DNA from: a bacterium | GTDB lineage: Bacteria; Patescibacteriota; Dojkabacteria; SC72 | Assembly (NCBI GenBank): GCA_017958745.1 | Contig: JAGDCC010000034.1 | Coordinates: 1 to 51,716, forward strand | Direction of reading: 5' to 3' | Length of the DNA stretch: 51,716 nt | In this document: positions 1 to 16,485 of the stretch, piece by piece | How the letters are laid out: every line of letters begins with the position of its first letter | Position numbering within the stretch: the stretch's first letter is position 1 | Notes under the pieces: generated by a model | Told to the model about the DNA's origin: nothing | Databases searched by the model: none | The model's input: only the letters and a program-made list of their open reading frames with translations | Made by a program: the position numbers and the translations under genes

Positions 1-1437
1 TAGTGTATATTCTCCATTTCCTATCTTGTTTATACTTATTTTTTTAGTAATGTCTTCGTCATCTAACTTGAACATAATTGTGTCATCATCTATAGATGCA
101 TTTATACTAGGTATTATTGTTCCTTTTATCATAACTTTTTTATCTGCGAATGAATCTGTTTCCGATGGAGTCATATTTATGACCTGAGGTATTTTTAGGT
201 ATATGCTGTCGTCTGTATCTATCTTTTCTTTTTCTTTATCATCTTCTTTGCCCTTTTCTTGATTTTTGTTTCCCTCTTTTTCTGGAGTAAGTACAGGTGT
301 TTCTGGAACGTTTCCGTCCTTGTCTGCTATTATCACTTCTTGTGACAATGCCATTCCAACGCCTGCTGGATCTTGATTGTCTATTGCTCTGACAATTAGG
401 TTGTATGTTCCAGGTTCTAGTTTAGATGTATTGTATTCGTAGGTTGCACGACTAAACTGTATGTCTGTGTTAATTGGAATCCATTTTGATTCGTCAAATG
501 GGTATTTGGTTATGTAAAGTTCGTACTTTACTATCATGTTGAGGTCTGATGCTGTCCAAGAAACTGATAACATATCTCCAACAGTAAGTCTTGTTCCTTC
601 TGCTGGTGCTGTAATTTTTACATCTGGTGTATCGTTTGCATTTGGACTTACGTTTAATACCCATGTTTGTGTAGATAGGTGGTTACTGTATCCATCGTGT
701 GCAAGAACAGACACAAGGTAGCTTGCTGCCTTGTCTGGTTGTCCTTTAAAAATAATTTCTAAATTACCATCTGAACCATCTTTTATGACTGTTTGCTTAA
801 GCCAGTTTTCTCCTGGTGTGAAGTACACGAAGTAATTAATTCTGTCCTTATCTATGTCTTTTGCTTTAACTGTGTATGAGTATTCTGTTCCTGTTGAGAG
901 GTTTCTCGATGGGGTTGAGTCGTTAGGGTCTGTTGTGAATTCTGGTGCACTATTGTTTGATATCGCCTGTAGTCCTTGTACATCGTAAGGGCTACTGATT
1001 TTACAACCAAGTGATGTTCCGTCTGCTTTTTTAATCGCACCCAGTAGACTAATGATACCTGTCTTAGATGGGGTGTATATGAAACTAGATGATATTACAT
1101 TTGGAGAATCTCCATATGTTTGTGAAAAGATGCTTTCTCCAGTTGTATCTGCGATACTTAGAGATGTTATACCTCCTCCATCTTCTACCTCTGCATCTAC
1201 TAAAACTCTGATAGATTTCCCAACTTCTAGTGTGTATGGGTTAACATTAGGTAAAGATATCACACAAGGGTTCTCCTCTGAGACCTCTATTTCCTCAAAA
1301 GCATCTTCTCTAGTGTCAAAAGTTGTCTTTTGGTTTAGTAACTCGTAAACAATTAGTGGAATTGATAGCATTAGAAAAAAAGATGTCGCAATAACGAAGT
1401 TCTTATTTGATTTTCTTAGGGCGTAACTTTTTTCCAT
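1..1437 (-). CDS. Secreted/cell-surface protein, N-terminal 479 codons (C-terminus runs off the left edge); cadherin-like/He_PIG-type Ig repeats
   Basis: Absent from the ORF track because it is open-ended. I read the minus frame codon by codon from ATG 1437..1435 to position 1 and found no stop. N-terminus MEKSYALRKSNKNFVIATSFFLMLSIPLIVYELLNQKTTFDTREDA is a TM/signal segment plus the F-D-T-R-x-x-A leader shared with the ORFs at 41016 and 43972. The segment APEFTTDP...TGTEYSYTVKAKDIDKDRINYFVYFTPGENWL looks like a cadherin-like Ig repeat. Confidence 0.7.
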   Translation of the reverse strand, partial: MEKSYALRKSNKNFVIATSFFLMLSIPLIVYELLNQKTTFDTREDAFEEIEVSEENPCVISLPNVNPYTLEVGKSIRVLVDAEVEDGGGITSLSIADTTGESIFSQTYGDSPNVISSSFIYTPSKTGIISLLGAIKKADGTSLGCKISSPYDVQGLQAISNNSAPEFTTDPNDSTPSRNLSTGTEYSYTVKAKDIDKDRINYFVYFTPGENWLKQTVIKDGSDGNLEIIFKGQPDKAASYLVSVLAHDGYSNHLSTQTWVLNVSPNANDTPDVKITAPAEGTRLTVGDMLSVSWTASDLNMIVKYELYITKYPFDESKWIPINTDIQFSRATYEYNTSKLEPGTYNLIVRAIDNQDPAGVGMALSQEVIIADKDGNVPETPVLTPEKEGNKNQEKGKEDDKEKEKIDTDDSIYLKIPQVINMTPSETDSFADKKVMIKGTIIPSINASIDDDTIMFKLDDEDITKKISINKIGNGEYTL

Positions 1438-1458
1438 CTACATATAATATACCCGTTA

Positions 1459-2880
1459 TTAGTTGTATTCTGCAAGCACATCATTTATCCTTTTTTCTGC
1501 ATTGCTTAGTGCTGATGATGCATCATTTCCATCTATTACTGTCTCTATCATGTCAGAGAATATCTCTTTGACCTCATCGTCTGGACCTATCTGCCAAGAT
1601 TTCATGAGATTGGCAGATTTTGCAATTGCATCTACATATTTTTCTCCAACCATTAAACTATTTAATTCTACTCTGGAGTATGGTTCTCCAAATGTTCTTA
1701 TTTTAGATTGTGATGTATATAGAGCCTTTTCGTTTGCTGGTTCTGAAAGAAATTTAATAAATTTCCATGCTTCTTCTGGATGTTTACAGTTTTTACTTAC
1801 TGCTTCTCCCCAATATGTAGAGTAGTATACTTCTTTGTTGTTTGCTCTTAATTGTGGAAGAGGAGCTGTATCAAATTCTAATGCGGAGTTTGCCTCTATG
1901 ATATCGAATGTCATCCAACTCGGAGCTATTAACATCGCTAACTTTCCTGAGAAGAACATTTCTGTATCTAAACCTATGTCGTTTCTCCATACTGCATCCT
2001 CTCCTGTAGAAAACGATATGTATCTATCTAAAACTCTTTTACCTTTCTGTGTATTTAGTGTAACTTTGGTTCTTGTTTCATCTATGATATCCATACCCTC
2101 TTGCAACATGAAGAAGTAGAGTATTTCTTCAAAGAAGCGCATTGTGTCTTTGGTTCCGCCCATAGATAGTCCGGCTTGTATTATTTGTCCAGAATTATCC
2201 TTTTTAGTTAGTTTAGTAGCTAAATCAAAGAGGTCGTTCCAATCTGTTGGGAATTCGTCTGTGTATCCAATTTCTTTTAATAGTTTTTTGTTGTAGAAAA
2301 CGACAAGTCCATCTATCTCTAGTGGTATTGCGTATATTTTCCCGTCTGTATCTGTAAAGTCCTCTACAGCTGTTGGATAAAATTCTTTGGCGTATTCTGA
2401 TGATGTCATAATAGATGAAGGAAGCTCAGACAATAAGTATCTGTACTTTGGAAGCCATGTGTTGTGTATTCTAAATATATCTGGAGCAGGTTCATCACTC
2501 GACGTATAAGATTGAACGAGTCTTGTGTAGAGTGTCTTCTCGTAACCTGCTTCTTCTATTGTACTTCCATATCGCTGCCTAGAATATTTAATTTTTACTC
2601 CAGGATTTTCGCTTTCGTATTGTTCTATTAATTCTTCTAATGTCTCATTGTCTTCCCACAATCCCCAGTAAACTAATTCTATATTTCCACTAGATGGACT
2701 GGTGGTTTGTGTTGTATCTCCTCCAACTGGTGTTTTTGGTTTGCTAACAGTTTGTACTGGAGAATTACTTCTATCTGTAAGAATAATGACTCCTATTAGT
2801 AAAAGTAACAATGCTCCACCTCCAAGGATTACTAACTTCTTATTGTTTTGTACAAATTCTTTTAGCTTGTTTGCATCCAT
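1459..2880 (-). CDS. Extracellular solute-binding protein (ABC transporter family 1, sugar-type), membrane-anchored
   Basis: 473-aa ORF with an N-terminal TM helix (LVILGGGALLLLLIGVIIL). IELVYWGLWEDNETLEELIEQYESENPGVKIKY and the later AIPLEIDGLVVFYNKKLL are typical of SBP_bac_1 proteins. No permease or ATPase gene is adjacent. Confidence 0.8.
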   Translation of the reverse strand: MDANKLKEFVQNNKKLVILGGGALLLLLIGVIILTDRSNSPVQTVSKPKTPVGGDTTQTTSPSSGNIELVYWGLWEDNETLEELIEQYESENPGVKIKYSRQRYGSTIEEAGYEKTLYTRLVQSYTSSDEPAPDIFRIHNTWLPKYRYLLSELPSSIMTSSEYAKEFYPTAVEDFTDTDGKIYAIPLEIDGLVVFYNKKLLKEIGYTDEFPTDWNDLFDLATKLTKKDNSGQIIQAGLSMGGTKDTMRFFEEILYFFMLQEGMDIIDETRTKVTLNTQKGKRVLDRYISFSTGEDAVWRNDIGLDTEMFFSGKLAMLIAPSWMTFDIIEANSALEFDTAPLPQLRANNKEVYYSTYWGEAVSKNCKHPEEAWKFIKFLSEPANEKALYTSQSKIRTFGEPYSRVELNSLMVGEKYVDAIAKSANLMKSWQIGPDDEVKEIFSDMIETVIDGNDASSALSNAEKRINDVLAEYN

Positions 2881-2913
2881 ATATTTACATTCCTTACATA
2901 TTATATTCTTATT

Positions 2914-3693
2914 TTAGCTTTTTCTTTCTGCGTAAACAACCAACCTTTTTGTTCCTATACCGAGAGGCCAGCAGGTCATCATTGTTATACTTTCTTTATT
3001 TGCATTTTGGTCTAATACAGAAAAATCATCTGCTTCTACGATTTTCTTTGTTCTCACTACATACTTTAGTGTAGAACCATCTTTTTCTATCTCTACGATA
3101 TCTCCTATTTCTATATTGCTTAATTTGGAAAATATTGTTTCTGGATAATTTTTGTGGGAGGAGAAGAAAGACTCTACTGCGCTATGCCCATATAAGAATG
3201 AGTTTCCTCCATCTCCTGGTATTGGTGTTCCCTTAAAGTGAGCAATTCCTTTCTTTAGATAGCTGTTGTAGACGTCTGCATTGGTACTTTCTACATTTGG
3301 AGTTATTAATATGTGATTTATTTCTATAGAAGATATTGTTATGTACATTGGCTTACTGTAACTTGTGTCTATTACGTAGTGTTTTGCACTTCCTTTTGAG
3401 GAAGATGAGGCGCCTAATACTAGCTCATGTGCAAGGTTCTCGAAGTAATTTTTACCTGGGTCGTAGAATGCAAACTCATTTTCTATGTATGTTTTGTATT
3501 CCTCTGATACCGGATTTACCTTTACATCTTCTCTTGTTTGTGTGATTACCCCATCTATATATGATTTAAGTAGTGGTATAGATTGGCTTGCAATTATTAT
3601 TAGTCCAGAAACAGCAAGTACAACGGATATTATTGTTTTGGTTCTTTTAAGCTTTGTTTCGTTTTCTATCTGGATATTCCACTTACTTTTCAT
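2914..3693 (-). CDS. Sortase-family transpeptidase
   Basis: N-terminal TM anchor, catalytic His context SFLYGHS, catalytic Cys context ITMMTCWP (TLxTC-type) and a downstream Arg (KRLVVYAER). Confidence 0.8.
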   Translation of the reverse strand: MKSKWNIQIENETKLKRTKTIISVVLAVSGLIIIASQSIPLLKSYIDGVITQTREDVKVNPVSEEYKTYIENEFAFYDPGKNYFENLAHELVLGASSSSKGSAKHYVIDTSYSKPMYITISSIEINHILITPNVESTNADVYNSYLKKGIAHFKGTPIPGDGGNSFLYGHSAVESFFSSHKNYPETIFSKLSNIEIGDIVEIEKDGSTLKYVVRTKKIVEADDFSVLDQNANKESITMMTCWPLGIGTKRLVVYAERKS

Positions 3694-12551: not shown

Positions 12552-12622
12552 TGCTGGATCGTCTAATGGTAGGACGGTGGTCTCTGGAACCACTAATTCT
12601 AGTTCGAATCTAGGTCCAGCAA
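12552..12622 (+). tRNA. tRNA-Gln (anticodon CUG)
   Basis: Acceptor TGCTGGA/TCCAGCA (U1-A72, as in bacterial tRNA-Gln), anticodon arm GTGGT-CTCTGGA-ACCAC, T-arm TCTAG-TTCGAAT-CTAGG. It lies 9 nt after tRNA-Glu and no CCA is encoded. Confidence 0.85.
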
Positions 12623-14227
12623 TTTCATATCATTTCTAATACTGTTTATACCTTTCATCCAAAACTCTTTCTTAGTAATATCTATGCCAATACTGTTAAA
12701 TAAATCTCTAGGAGATTTGGTACTACCACTACTTAAGAACATCTTAACCTTTTCTACATTCTTCTTATCTTCCTTTACTAATTCCAATAAAGACTTGGCA
12801 ATAAGCAGACCACTAGCATAGGAATAAACATAGAAATATCTTCTAAAATGACCAACATAAATCCATCCGAGTTTCATAGCAGTATCCGTGTCTACAGCAT
12901 CTCCAAGGTATGCATTCATATGTTTAGCAAATAGATTACAAATATAATCCTTATCTAAGAATCCTTTTTCTCTATAATCCTTATGTAAATCTTTCTCAAA
13001 ATTATAAAATGCAATCTGTCTAAATATTGTAGAAATATCTCTGTTTAGTTTTTGGTTATATAAAGAAATCTTTTCCTCTTGGGAGGCCATAGAAATAATG
13101 TCATCCAAAACATACCCTTCAAAGAAAGTACTAGCAATCTCTGCAAGAGAAATAGGGTAATCGCAGTTTAGTTCTGACTGAGACTTAGACAGCTCTGTAT
13201 GTATTCCGTGACCACTCTCATGAGCGATTGTAAGTACATCATCTACAGTATTGGTATGGTTTAGGAGAATGTATGTAGGTAGATTCTTACCAACGCTTAC
13301 ACAGAATGCACCTCCATATTTTCCTTGTTTAGGAAATACATCATACTGTCCGTTGTCATAGAATGATTTCACAATGTTATAAAACTCTTCATCCAATTTG
13401 CGGAAGGATTCTTCCACTAGTTGTTGTGCATTATCATAAGTGTATTCTTTGTTTACATCTTCTGCTATTGGAACGTTTCTTTCATGATATCCAAGAGTTT
13501 TTTGTCCAAGCATTTTTGCTTTATATTTATAATATTGCTGAGAAATATCAAAATTGTCTGTAACTGCAGATACTAGAGAATCTACAATTTCTGGTTCTAT
13601 ATCGTCTGATACCAATGTAGCTAATTCTGGCTTGGCATAATTTCTAACTTTATCTCTTGACTTCTTATGCTCCAATACTGAGTTCATCTCGTATTCTGCA
13701 ATCTCTAGGTATTTCTCATTTACTTTGTTAAATTGAGAAGATGCATAGTTTCTTACATCTTTCTTTTTGCTATCCAAATATTTACTTATCTCGTTATAGG
13801 ATATGTCTACTTCTTTTCCATCCTCATTCTTAACTGTCGTTTTTTGCTTATCTAGTAAGGTAGATAGCATTTCTACCCAATTCTCATAGGATGTGTTGTA
13901 TGTTATGTTAAGTATCTTTTCTTCCTTGTCTGACAATACATATTTTCCACTTGCAAATGATGTTTCTAACATGTGGTGGTATTTTTGTAATAAAGGGGAA
14001 TCTAGGAATATCTTTTGCTTTTCTTCTGGTATCTTGGAAATACTTAAGCTAAAGAATTGAATATTATTTTCTAAATCTGTTGTTATATCGTCTAGCTTAT
14101 TTATTCTTGCTTTTATATCAGTATTTGTTTGGTCTAAGTAGAAGAGTAGAGAATAGTAATAAGACGGTTTTGTGCATAGCCCGTAATTTTGCATTAAGTT
14201 CTCGTAATCTGTGAGTGCTTCAAGCAT
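12599..14227 (-). CDS. pepF: Oligoendopeptidase F (M3B zinc metallopeptidase); the reading frame continues upstream to ATG 14374 but is interrupted by an in-frame TAA at 14290..14288
   Basis: Zincin site TIAHESGHGIH and overall M3B-like layout. The 28 codons upstream of the TAA (MQNTWNLELLYKDLEDPQIKEDIQKSIE) plus the following NKKFVEKWKNNKGYLEKPEI look like a normal PepF N-terminus. Confidence 0.85.
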   Translation of the reverse strand: MLEALTDYENLMQNYGLCTKPSYYYSLLFYLDQTNTDIKARINKLDDITTDLENNIQFFSLSISKIPEEKQKIFLDSPLLQKYHHMLETSFASGKYVLSDKEEKILNITYNTSYENWVEMLSTLLDKQKTTVKNEDGKEVDISYNEISKYLDSKKKDVRNYASSQFNKVNEKYLEIAEYEMNSVLEHKKSRDKVRNYAKPELATLVSDDIEPEIVDSLVSAVTDNFDISQQYYKYKAKMLGQKTLGYHERNVPIAEDVNKEYTYDNAQQLVEESFRKLDEEFYNIVKSFYDNGQYDVFPKQGKYGGAFCVSVGKNLPTYILLNHTNTVDDVLTIAHESGHGIHTELSKSQSELNCDYPISLAEIASTFFEGYVLDDIISMASQEEKISLYNQKLNRDISTIFRQIAFYNFEKDLHKDYREKGFLDKDYICNLFAKHMNAYLGDAVDTDTAMKLGWIYVGHFRRYFYVYSYASGLLIAKSLLELVKEDKKNVEKVKMFLSSGSTKSPRDLFNSIGIDITKKEFWMKGINSIRNDMKLLDLDSN

Positions 14228-14373
14228 TATTTCAGGTTTTTCTAAATATCCCTTATTATTTTTCCACTTCTCTACAAATTTTTTGTTTTATTCTATAGAT
14301 TTCTGTATATCTTCTTTTATCTGGGGATCTTCTAAATCCTTATAAAGAAGTTCTAGATTCCATGTGTTTTGCA

Positions 14374-14568
14374 TTAGTCGTTATCGTCGTCAAATATACT
14401 GAATGGGCTTACTACTTTATCTTTTCCAAAATGCATAGATTCGTGGATTTTGCTGTGGTCATGAATAGACTCATGTACGTTCTTTGAAAGTCCAGAATGC
14501 ATAGATTCGTGAATGCTACTATGACTTATTCCAAACTTTTTATCGTCATCGTCATCAAATATTCCCAT
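14374..14568 (-). CDS. 64-aa Asp/His-rich mini-protein with three HExxH motifs
   Basis: MGIFDDDDDKKFGISHSSIHESMHSGLSKNVHESIHDHSKIHESMHFGKDKVVSPFSIFDDDND. SD AGGAG (14580..14576) lies 7 nt upstream of the ATG. Its stop overlaps the upstream pepF ATG as TAATG. Confidence 0.55.
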   Translation of the reverse strand: MGIFDDDDDKKFGISHSSIHESMHSGLSKNVHESIHDHSKIHESMHFGKDKVVSPFSIFDDDND

Positions 14569-14664
14569 ATTGTTTCTCCTATTAAATTAATTCCTTAATG
14601 ATAACATTATCTCTTTTTATACGCTATATATGAGTAATATATGAAATGAGAGTATGTACTGAAA

Positions 14665-14679: not shown

Positions 14680-16485
14680 ATGTATAAACTCATACGAGAA
14701 GTAATAAATCTTATTGTAAAGTTCTTTAAGCCATATGGACTTTCAGATAAGATGCTTGTGATTCCAGACAATGTTAAGAAAATGGGCTTTAAAGTCGGTT
14801 TTTTGAATTTGGGAATGACGTTGATAGCTTTAGTTTTTGCATTCATCCTTAAAGTGACCAATCTGATGATTGAGCATAGGCTGATTGGACTCGGAATTAT
14901 TTTGTTTATGCTGCACCGTGGACAGCAGATTGTCAAAGAAGCATATCATCTTTTTGAAGGTTCCGAAAACAAGAAATATGATCTTATTTTTGAGGATGAA
15001 ATTATTCTTCGAGGAAGTAAGATTATTGGTAAAACAGCAAACAAAATATTGAAATATGATGCATCCAATAAGTTTTACAAGATAATGAGTAATGAATCTA
15101 TGTTAAATACAATTTCAAACTATTTACAAAACTTATGGAGACAGAAGGTTCAACATGCATTTGATTTACTACAAATATTAAGTGTTGTTATTATGCTAGT
15201 AATTGCTGTGTTAACTAATACATCTATAAGTCAGATGGTATTTATCCCTTTGATTTTTGCCTTTGTGATAATTTCTTTTTTTAGTTCTGCATATATTAGT
15301 TTAAATAGAGGATCTTTTTATAAAAGACATAGAGATTTTAATAATGATCAATCTCTTATAGTTAATGATTTACTTCGCATTCCAGATATTGTGAAGAATG
15401 ATTTAGAGATGAGAATTAATAAACTCCAAAAAACTGTCATTGAAAGTAATGCTAATATTACAAAGTTTCATAGGAAAATGAATTTGTCTAGGTTATTTGT
15501 CTCGACAATAGAAGCATTTAGTCAATATGGAATTATAATATTCTATCTATGTGGAGTTGATTGGAATAGTATTAGTTTAGCAACAATTACTGAAATAACT
15601 GCGATCCTTCTTGTTGTTGAAACTGCACTTGCCCAAATTGGTCGAATTGCAGAAACTCTAAACAACCATAACGATAGAATAACTGTATTAGAGAAAGAAG
15701 AACAAGATATGAGACTAATCTTAGATGTATATCATAGTGAATCAGAAAGAATGTCTGCACCTAGAGTTATTGAAAATATAGATATCAATCCTTTTTCTAT
15801 TCAATATTTAGAAGAGTCAGAGAATGATAAACCATTTACATTAGTTTCAAGGAATCCGATACATATTGGAAAGGGCGAGGTTGTTGTTTTATACGGTCCT
15901 TCTGGTAGTGGTAAATCAACATTTATGAAAATGCTAACAGAAAGAATAAAGCTGGAAAAAAGTACAGATATACCATCTACATCTAGGTTCTTATTCTATG
16001 ATGAGAAACTGAGGTTTGGTTCTTTTAGCATTTACGAGGAATTGTTTTGTTGTAGTAGCAATCCAGATCTTCCTAAAATGAAAAGAATACTAGAGAAACT
16101 TCATTTATGGCATGAGATAAAAGCAAATTGTTTTGATGTGTGGCAATGGATGAAAGAAAAGCAGTTTGATCAGTCTCTTTCCAATGGTCAAAAGCAAAGA
16201 CTTATTATTGCTAAAATGCTGTATTGGTTAGACAGTGATATAGATGTTATGGTATTGGATGAGTGCACGTCAGGCCTTGATGAAAAAGCAGAGTCTAATT
16301 CTGCTGATGCAGAGAGAATTCTTGAGTATATTGTTAGATATTCTAACAAAGATAAAAAAAGAATTGTTATTATCTCTACACATCAAAATATAGACGGATT
16401 CAAGCAAAAACTTGCGGGTGATTTCACGTTTAAGAACTTGCAATTTGCGAAGATTGGGAAAAATAATTTAGTAAAGGAAGTTTAG
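14680..16485 (+). CDS. ABC transporter, fused membrane domain + ATP-binding domain (exporter-type, divergent)
   Basis: The N-terminal half has several TM helices. The C-terminal NBD carries Walker A GPSGSGKST, signature LSNGQKQRL, Walker B VMVLDECTSGLD and H-loop ISTHQ. Confidence 0.8.
   Translation: MYKLIREVINLIVKFFKPYGLSDKMLVIPDNVKKMGFKVGFLNLGMTLIALVFAFILKVTNLMIEHRLIGLGIILFMLHRGQQIVKEAYHLFEGSENKKYDLIFEDEIILRGSKIIGKTANKILKYDASNKFYKIMSNESMLNTISNYLQNLWRQKVQHAFDLLQILSVVIMLVIAVLTNTSISQMVFIPLIFAFVIISFFSSAYISLNRGSFYKRHRDFNNDQSLIVNDLLRIPDIVKNDLEMRINKLQKTVIESNANITKFHRKMNLSRLFVSTIEAFSQYGIIIFYLCGVDWNSISLATITEITAILLVVETALAQIGRIAETLNNHNDRITVLEKEEQDMRLILDVYHSESERMSAPRVIENIDINPFSIQYLEESENDKPFTLVSRNPIHIGKGEVVVLYGPSGSGKSTFMKMLTERIKLEKSTDIPSTSRFLFYDEKLRFGSFSIYEELFCCSSNPDLPKMKRILEKLHLWHEIKANCFDVWQWMKEKQFDQSLSNGQKQRLIIAKMLYWLDSDIDVMVLDECTSGLDEKAESNSADAERILEYIVRYSNKDKKRIVIISTHQNIDGFKQKLAGDFTFKNLQFAKIGKNNLVKEV

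Follow-up and report, generated by a model that had tools for sequence, protein, structure and literature searches.

Two histidines set one turn apart on a helix (i/i+4) chelate Zn, Ni and Cu. Hpn and the Hpn-like protein of Helicobacter pylori are cytosolic, very His-rich proteins of ~60 aa that buffer or store Ni, Hpn having poly-His runs, Cys pairs and a His content of ~47%. SilE and PcoE, both from resistance operons, are disordered, Met-rich Ag/Cu binders of the periplasm (~140 aa); they carry HxxM/MxxH motifs and gain helix on binding metal. SmbP is a small, helical, His-rich protein that binds several divalent ions, e.g. Cu(II) and Ni(II) (PMC12955753), and the bacterial metallothioneins SmtA and BmtA are small cytosolic zinc buffers (PMC10612145). 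The 64-aa mini-protein described here is best called an undescribed family inside a known functional kind, the kind being assigned by analogy with these proteins.

The mini-protein resembles SmbP in being small, Cys-poor, His-rich and, by prediction, helical, with His 3-4 residues apart on amphipathic helices; however, SmbP is a periplasmic protein of 9.9 kDa built as a stable four-helix structure of heptad-like repeats, whereas the mini-protein has neither a signal peptide nor a confident fold. No homology to SmbP was detected when the 40-member alignment A4 was compared with an SmbP half (hhalign probability 0.06%), and a profile search of the PDB sequences, presumably including 3U8V, gave 0 matches at E<=10. 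With Hpn it shares a size of ~60 aa, an apparently cytosolic location and His-richness, but its His are isolated at fixed i/i+4 spacing and make up only ~15% of residues, Cys is absent and there is a conserved non-His block; the family searches revealed no homology to Hpn. HESM in its third motif forms an HxxM unit whose Met is almost invariant, and like SilE and PcoE it is predicted to be disordered, but Met is conserved at this one place only, the protein is apparently cytosolic and no sil or pco genes lie nearby. The niche proposed for it is that of SmtA and BmtA, which use Cys-rich clusters, whereas Cys occurs in 0 of 40 mini-protein members. Lastly, the third motif H42-E43-x-x-H46-x-G48-x-D50 superficially recalls the HExxH + Gly + third ligand of zincins and metzincins; the metzincin spacing HExxHxxGxxH/D is not kept, Gly and Asp of HESMH-F-G-K-D following the second His at +2 and +4 rather than at +3 and +6. 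Because the protein has 64 aa, no stable predicted fold and no peptidase domain, the zincin likeness is one of motif only: a Pfam scan found no Peptidase_M3 or M3_N domain in the mini-protein or in any of the 40 members, and the conserved catalytic Glu in each HExxH that marks a zincin is not found.

The window, i.e. the whole 51,716-nt stretch of contig JAGDCC010000034.1 that was analysed, carries the mini-gene on its reverse strand (Table 1). The product is a 7.3 kDa protein without Cys. It carries three (I/V)HES(M/I)H motifs (residues 19-24, 31-36 and 41-46) and Asp-rich ends, GIFDDDDD and SIFDDDND both being seen, exactly as a sequence-only reading of the window had described it. The same reading had reported three related 15-mers encoding the motifs, and these are present in the plus strand at 14497, 14461 and 14431, two of them identical and the third with 3 mismatches. 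His accounts for 12.5% of the mini-protein as against 1.3% across the long ORFs of the window, and if its 8 His were placed at random five HxxxH pairs would arise with P ~9e-5. The N-terminus MGIFDDDDDKKFG is acidic and has no hydrophobic core, and no signal peptide is apparent on reading the sequence; tryptic peptides of the protein include FGISHSSIHESMHSGLSK and IHESMHFGK. A tblastn search found no second copy of the mini-gene in the window. Its Shine-Dalgarno site had been counted among the few clear ones of the window, and this holds, AGGAG or GGAGG preceding 4 of the 39 long ORFs. The SD-bearing genes of the window are grouped at 47.9-50.7 kb, and at many window starts (e.g. 3819+, 20329-, 34755-, 34797+, 45869+) a TAnAAT-like box lies 6-12 nt ahead of the ATG, a proximity that suggests widespread leaderless mRNAs.

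Table 1. Features of the mini-gene locus (window coordinates) and genes next to the mini-gene in related loci (L numbers).
Feature	Position or locus	Strand	Basis or remark
64-aa His-ladder mini-protein CDS	14374..14568	-	Stop TAA 14376..14374; ORF and translation, homologues, purifying selection
His ladder 1: H16, H20, H24 (SHSSIHESMH), with HExxH copy 1	14497..14523	-	Glu of copy 1 variable in family
His cluster 2: H32, H36, D37, H38 (HESIHDH), with HExxH copy 2	14455..14475	-	Glu of copy 2 variable in family
Most conserved block, residues 40-57, KIHESMHFGKDKVVSPFS	14398..14451	-	Alignments A1, A3, A4
Shine-Dalgarno AGGAG, 7 nt 5' of mini-gene ATG	14576..14580	-	Read from sequence
Putative -10 box GATAAT	14606..14611	-	Sequence reading and comparison across loci; missed by strict consensus scan
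pepF (M3B oligoendopeptidase F, catalytic HESGH)	12599..14374	-	PF01432 and PF08439 matches
ABC exporter, 601 aa, fused permease and ATPase, divergent, 111 nt upstream of mini-gene	14680..16485	+	Kept beside the mini-gene in this strain group alone
S11 carboxypeptidase and two Gate-domain genes; mini-gene 48 nt upstream of carboxypeptidase	L004		
Metallophosphoesterase adjoining mini-gene	L005-L008		
111-aa pyrophosphatase-like gene, on either side of mini-gene	L009:6202-6537, L010:5460-5795, L012:297-632, L017:353-688		
Subtilisin-like gene adjoining mini-gene	L010, L017		
Toxin-antitoxin pair or transposase near mini-gene	L011, L018		
CDF cation-efflux gene 38 nt upstream of mini-gene	L015, L016		
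TrmD upstream, RecG-like gene downstream of mini-gene	L019		
SIR2 upstream, class II FBA 15 nt downstream of mini-gene	L026, L027		
ExoI adjoining mini-gene	L028		
GDPD-like gene adjoining mini-gene	L029-L032		
TadA-like deaminase between two 99%-identical inverted mini-gene copies	L033-L035		

Comparison with relatives makes it clear that the mini-gene is a real gene. Its closest relative (L001) differs from it by 21 synonymous and 6 non-synonymous changes (pS 0.67, pN 0.04), and other pairs, in which synonymous sites are saturated, keep a pN of 0.07-0.39, so that the peptide itself is clearly under purifying selection. Homologues fell into 9 clusters at 90% identity in the first search and 42 in the profile search, and an exhaustive HMMER search of 1.84 billion representatives gave 17 clusters at 50% identity. 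Members are 53-79 aa long in the A4 alignment and originate in gut metagenomes of ruminants and humans. Among genome matches that bear the mini-protein, L009 and L010 (the latter from sheep jejunum) carry the label Candidatus Saccharibacteria and L011 the label Bacilli, and since the low-GC locus L021 has a bona fide SspI gene, scoring above the TIGR03092 cut-off, 421 nt downstream of the mini-gene, some carriers are Bacillota. These labels conflict with those of the closest named PepF homologues (58-60% identity), which are Ca. Dojkabacteria; the window itself is accordingly ascribed to a CPR-type bacterium living in the gut of ruminants.

The sequence-only reading knew of no described family of this kind, and in this it was borne out by curated families, solved structures and folds alike: no Pfam-A, NCBIfam, PHROGs or PADLOC match lies at or near its curated cut-off (the best are at chance level, E 0.02-0.2), and Foldseek against the PDB gave no match. 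No source supplied an informative name for any family member, and full-text literature searches (HESMH; Saccharibacteria with histidine-rich; HxxxH small proteins) returned nothing on the family. A phage or defence origin was considered and rejected, there being no relative on a viral contig and no match in PHROGs or PADLOC.

What the family conserves is best seen in alignments A3 and A4, with 24 and 40 members, the latter providing the counts out of 40 given here. In both alignments H16, H20, H32, H36, H38 and P55 are invariant, and conservation reaches 90% or more at H24, D37, I41, H42, E43, M45, H46 and G48. Mean His content is about 15%. Conserved His at ligand-compatible spacing, the mark of small His-rich metal binders as a functional class, is found in the eight His and in the five HxxxH pairs present in 31/40 members. 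The HExxH motif itself is much less general, three copies occurring in 8/40 members and just one in 19/40: E43 of the third motif is kept, whereas the same position in motifs 1 and 2 varies among E, K, D, N and S, and most members read HKSMH, HDSKH, HSSIH or HKDIH there. Asp-rich segments at both termini are limited to 6/40 members, and the mirrored termini are, on this alignment, a subclade trait. Since the triplet and the acidic ends occur in few members, the family signature is read instead as the ladder H-x3-H-x3-H ... H-x3-H-x-H-x3-H-x3-H-x3-D together with the block KIHESMHFGxDKxxSPF. Residues 40-57 combine the ladder H38/H42/H46/D50, the sole conserved Glu (E43), and M45, G48 and P55. 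The pI of members spans 4.4-11.4, and thus the His core is kept while net charge is not.

A hydrophobic residue precedes His in each segment (I19/M23, V31/I35, I41/M45), so that on a helix each His segment would present a hydrophobic stripe beside a His stripe. AF2 models built with 10 and 40 sequences reached pLDDT 57 and 61 (pTM 0.15-0.19) and gave no confident fold; their short helices coincide, at low confidence, with the His segments (e.g. 16-24). Low confidence combined with helices on the His segments fits a protein that would be disordered without metal.

Genomic surroundings were compared in 38 related loci (L001-L038), of which those bearing the mini-gene represent 17 distinct contexts. 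The neighbours are mostly unrelated to metals (TrmD, the RecG-like protein, S11 carboxypeptidase, subtilisin, ExoI, a toxin-antitoxin pair, transposase), and in several other loci the mini-gene stands alone. Besides one CDF transporter, no classical metal-handling gene was seen in the DNA examined; tblastn found no CDF, pyrophosphatase-like, metallophosphoesterase or YchF gene in the window. The CDF protein of L016 has no obvious His-rich loop. In that locus (947-3053), as in L015, the CDF gene, the mini-gene and an overlapping gene for a 236-aa membrane-anchored protein lie on one strand, and the 38-nt gap between the first two contains a TGTTATAAT box. The pyrophosphatase-like protein looks truncated, matching PF00719 over ~85 of 153 profile positions; it is encoded near ychF, and two of its four loci are labelled Saccharibacteria. 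In L004 an Asn-rich repetitive ORF of 69 aa (3-212) ends 15 nt before the mini-gene, and the S11 D-Ala-D-Ala carboxypeptidase and two Gate-domain genes follow downstream (474-2647), an arrangement that we take to resemble the dacB-spmA-spmB sporulation operon of Bacillota. In L033 (2387-2655 and 3369-3637; also L034 and L035) each inverted copy is 269 nt long, of which 38 nt lie upstream of the mini-gene, the enclosed gene is TadA-like with a cytidine/dCMP-deaminase fold, and the copies read as a recent duplication or an invertible arrangement.

In nearly all contexts read, a -10-like box, extended in several loci, and AGGAG or AGGAGG precede the mini-gene, even 38 nt after the CDF gene; TGnTATAAT- or TATACT-like boxes occupy the place of the window's -10 box, and terminator-like hairpins directly follow the mini-gene in several loci. 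Four low-GC loci with unrelated flanking genes (L011, L020, L021, L026) have a nearly identical upstream signal, (T/A)GATATACT, a few bases and then ATAGGAGGTAT, which fits a portable cassette of promoter, SD and ORF. The mini-gene thus appears, from these signals, to be a self-contained unit with its own promoter and a strong ribosome-binding site, and is presumably strongly expressed; because it seems to have its own promoter, its neighbours say little on its function, and the overlap with pepF reads as a local arrangement of one strain group. A Fur-family, palindrome-like candidate operator in the window (GATAATGTTATC, 14611..14600) was rejected as a Fur/Zur-type site, being conserved only in the window and L001 while other loci have an ordinary TATAAT or TATACT -10 box there; it is read as the promoter. 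No Zur/Fur-type operator or riboswitch was found upstream of the mini-gene, and the only Rfam match at E<=1 was to a snoRNA, at chance level.

On this pattern the mini-protein is, with a probability of about 0.5, a cytosolic buffer or chaperone for a divalent metal, probably Zn, that would be disordered without it. We infer metal binding, the identity of the metal, metal-induced folding and the physiological role as follows. The apoprotein would be largely disordered, and a divalent metal would draw the short amphipathic helices together, Zn(II) being the likeliest and Ni, Co and Cu also possible. Two or three metal sites, intra- or intermolecular, would thereby form from His residues of separate helices, with D37, E43 and D50 as extra ligands. 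Function would rest on the eight conserved His in their i/i+4 ladders, H16-H20-H24, H32-H36-H38 and H38-H42-H46-D50, and the protein would buffer, store or chaperone metal through its His, a role that Cys-rich metallothioneins or Hpn have elsewhere. Eight conserved His spaced i/i+4 as on a helix, with conserved Asp/Glu next to them and Cys absent, are the classic metal-ligation signature.

Zinc is favoured because the ligands are His and carboxylates without Cys, the protein is apparently cytosolic and several close neighbours are Zn-linked. Zn- or metal-linked neighbours are PepF, class II FBA, the TadA-like deaminase, the CDF transporter and SIR2, and further the metallophosphoesterase and the pyrophosphatase-like gene (L005-L010); they lend the Zn reading weak support. 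As ~5-6% of bacterial proteins bind Zn, the 3-5 Zn-linked neighbours in 17 contexts, counted post hoc, are only mildly above expectation. The conserved C-terminal block FGxDKxxSPF exceeds the needs of a simple chelator and may point to a specific partner.

The sequence-only reading had noted that the stop of the mini-gene overlaps the upstream ATG of pepF (TAATG) and that PepF carries HESGH, and both observations are real, the ATG at 14374 being the true pepF start in relatives. In the window, an in-frame TAA at codon 29 of pepF (14290..14288) lets this ATG open only 28 codons, so that the overlap leads into an interrupted gene, and the long ORF restarts at M50 (14227) without an SD. Codon 29 is GAA, and PepF intact at 591 aa, both in the near-identical contig L036 and in L001 (91% identical); the TAA is either a nonsense allele of this strain or an error of the assembly. 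An alternative genetic code was rejected as its cause: the long ORFs read normally under table 11, TAA is the commonest of their stop codons (27 of 39, with 10 TAG and 2 TGA), and near-identical contigs have GAA. A mini-protein dedicated to PepF, delivering zinc to it, inhibiting it or regulating it, kept at a fixed ratio by TAATG coupling and acting through HExxH mimicry, would account for the stop/start overlap retained in the window, L001 and L036, and for the likeness of HESMH and HESIH to HESGH. It is nevertheless highly improbable. PepF adjoins the mini-gene only in those three sequences (order ABC exporter, mini-gene, pepF, greA), which count as 1 of the 17 contexts; the next closest PepF (60% identity, L037/L038), set in a different neighbourhood, lacks such an ORF in the 345-nt spacer that precedes it; the Glu varies in two of the three motifs and few members have all three HExxH; and in the window pepF is cut at codon 29 while the mini-gene is intact. 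The functional tie to PepF that had been proposed is thus contradicted by 17 distinct neighbourhoods, and synteny of the homologues with M3B peptidases extends to a single strain group. The idea of a zincin-site mimic is likewise unsupported, given the variable Glu and the rarity of the triple motif, and the resemblance of HESxH to the HESGH of the neighbouring PepF is coincidental. Where a zinc chaperone or buffer, an inhibitor or a peptidase regulator had been suggested, a His-rich metal-binding role survives as the most plausible chemistry, and a role specific to PepF is not supported. The case is a lesson in how striking a motif match with an adjacent gene can be when the neighbourhoods of related genomes show no conserved PepF link. 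Least credible of all the explanations is a regulatory leader peptide or uORF whose translation, dependent on His codons or metal, would control the downstream gene. Very short or overlapping downstream junctions do recur (window/L001; L016; L019, 2 nt; L009, 9 nt; L026, 15 nt), but selection acts on the amino acid sequence across lineages with saturated synonymous sites, the downstream genes are mutually unrelated, a terminator-like hairpin directly follows the mini-gene in several loci, and the His codons are spaced rather than in a run.

Export through the neighbouring ABC transporter, which would make the mini-protein a zincophore-like scavenger or a histatin-like antimicrobial, is very unlikely. 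The exporter gene diverges from the mini-gene in the window, L001 and L036 and its product is weakly similar to exporters of bacteriocins and of type I secretion, and ABC transporter genes also lie near the mini-gene in L013 and L033; these are of different types, however, and amount to only 3 of 17 contexts, the mini-protein has neither a signal peptide nor a double-glycine leader, and no peptidase-domain family is among the exporter's listed Pfam and top NCBIfam matches. It is scarcely believable that the family is a spore-associated small protein, at least in its Bacillota members, as the SspI gene of L021 and the dacB-spmA-spmB-like surroundings of L004 could be taken to imply. The low-GC promoters look vegetative, with a sigma-A extended -10 (TGATATACT) rather than a sigma-F/G type, and most carriers are labelled CPR/Saccharibacteria, which are not known to sporulate; no member has a Pfam or NCBIfam match to SASP profiles, only the L021 neighbour being SspI. 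A role without metal deserves more weight than any of these, though it too is unlikely: the His array could serve as a pH-responsive switch or buffer, or KIHESMHFGxDKxxSPF as a short linear motif that docks on a conserved partner protein, e.g. that of a stress hydrophilin or adaptor. The pKa of His is ~6-6.5 and rumen pH is 5.5-6.8, and the carriers live in gut and rumen; conservation peaks in a contiguous stretch of 17-18 residues that includes the non-ligand G48, P55 and F56; the protein is predicted to be disordered; and its promoters are apparently strong, of constitutive type and without a metal operator. Against such a role stand the metal-ligation signature set out above and the fact that no partner gene co-occurs consistently. 

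The preferred reading, a His-based metal buffer or chaperone, can be carried further into a proposal that is itself doubtful. The mini-protein would be a Cys-free "histidine-ladder metallothionein", a cytosolic Zn(II) buffer/chaperone of reduced-genome gut bacteria (CPR/Saccharibacteria and low-GC Bacillota) that folds only on metal and supplies or protects zinc enzymes such as PepF, class II aldolase and tRNA deaminase, its gene being a promoter-SD-ORF cassette that moves between sites and phyla. Bolder still is the variant in which the H42-E43-H46-D50 site would make it a minimal metal-dependent catalytic or competitive peptide. The protein is short enough for chemical synthesis, so the hypothesis is directly testable, and if metal binding is true it could, as SmbP does, provide a compact affinity or solubility tag. 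The metal homeostasis of such minimal-genome bacteria is, to our knowledge, almost unstudied, and the mini-protein would then give them a new family of very small metal buffers that rely on His and are unrelated in sequence to known ones. Although the motivating link to PepF does not hold, the microprotein family that emerges is clean and tractable, and its bacterial carriers are poorly understood.
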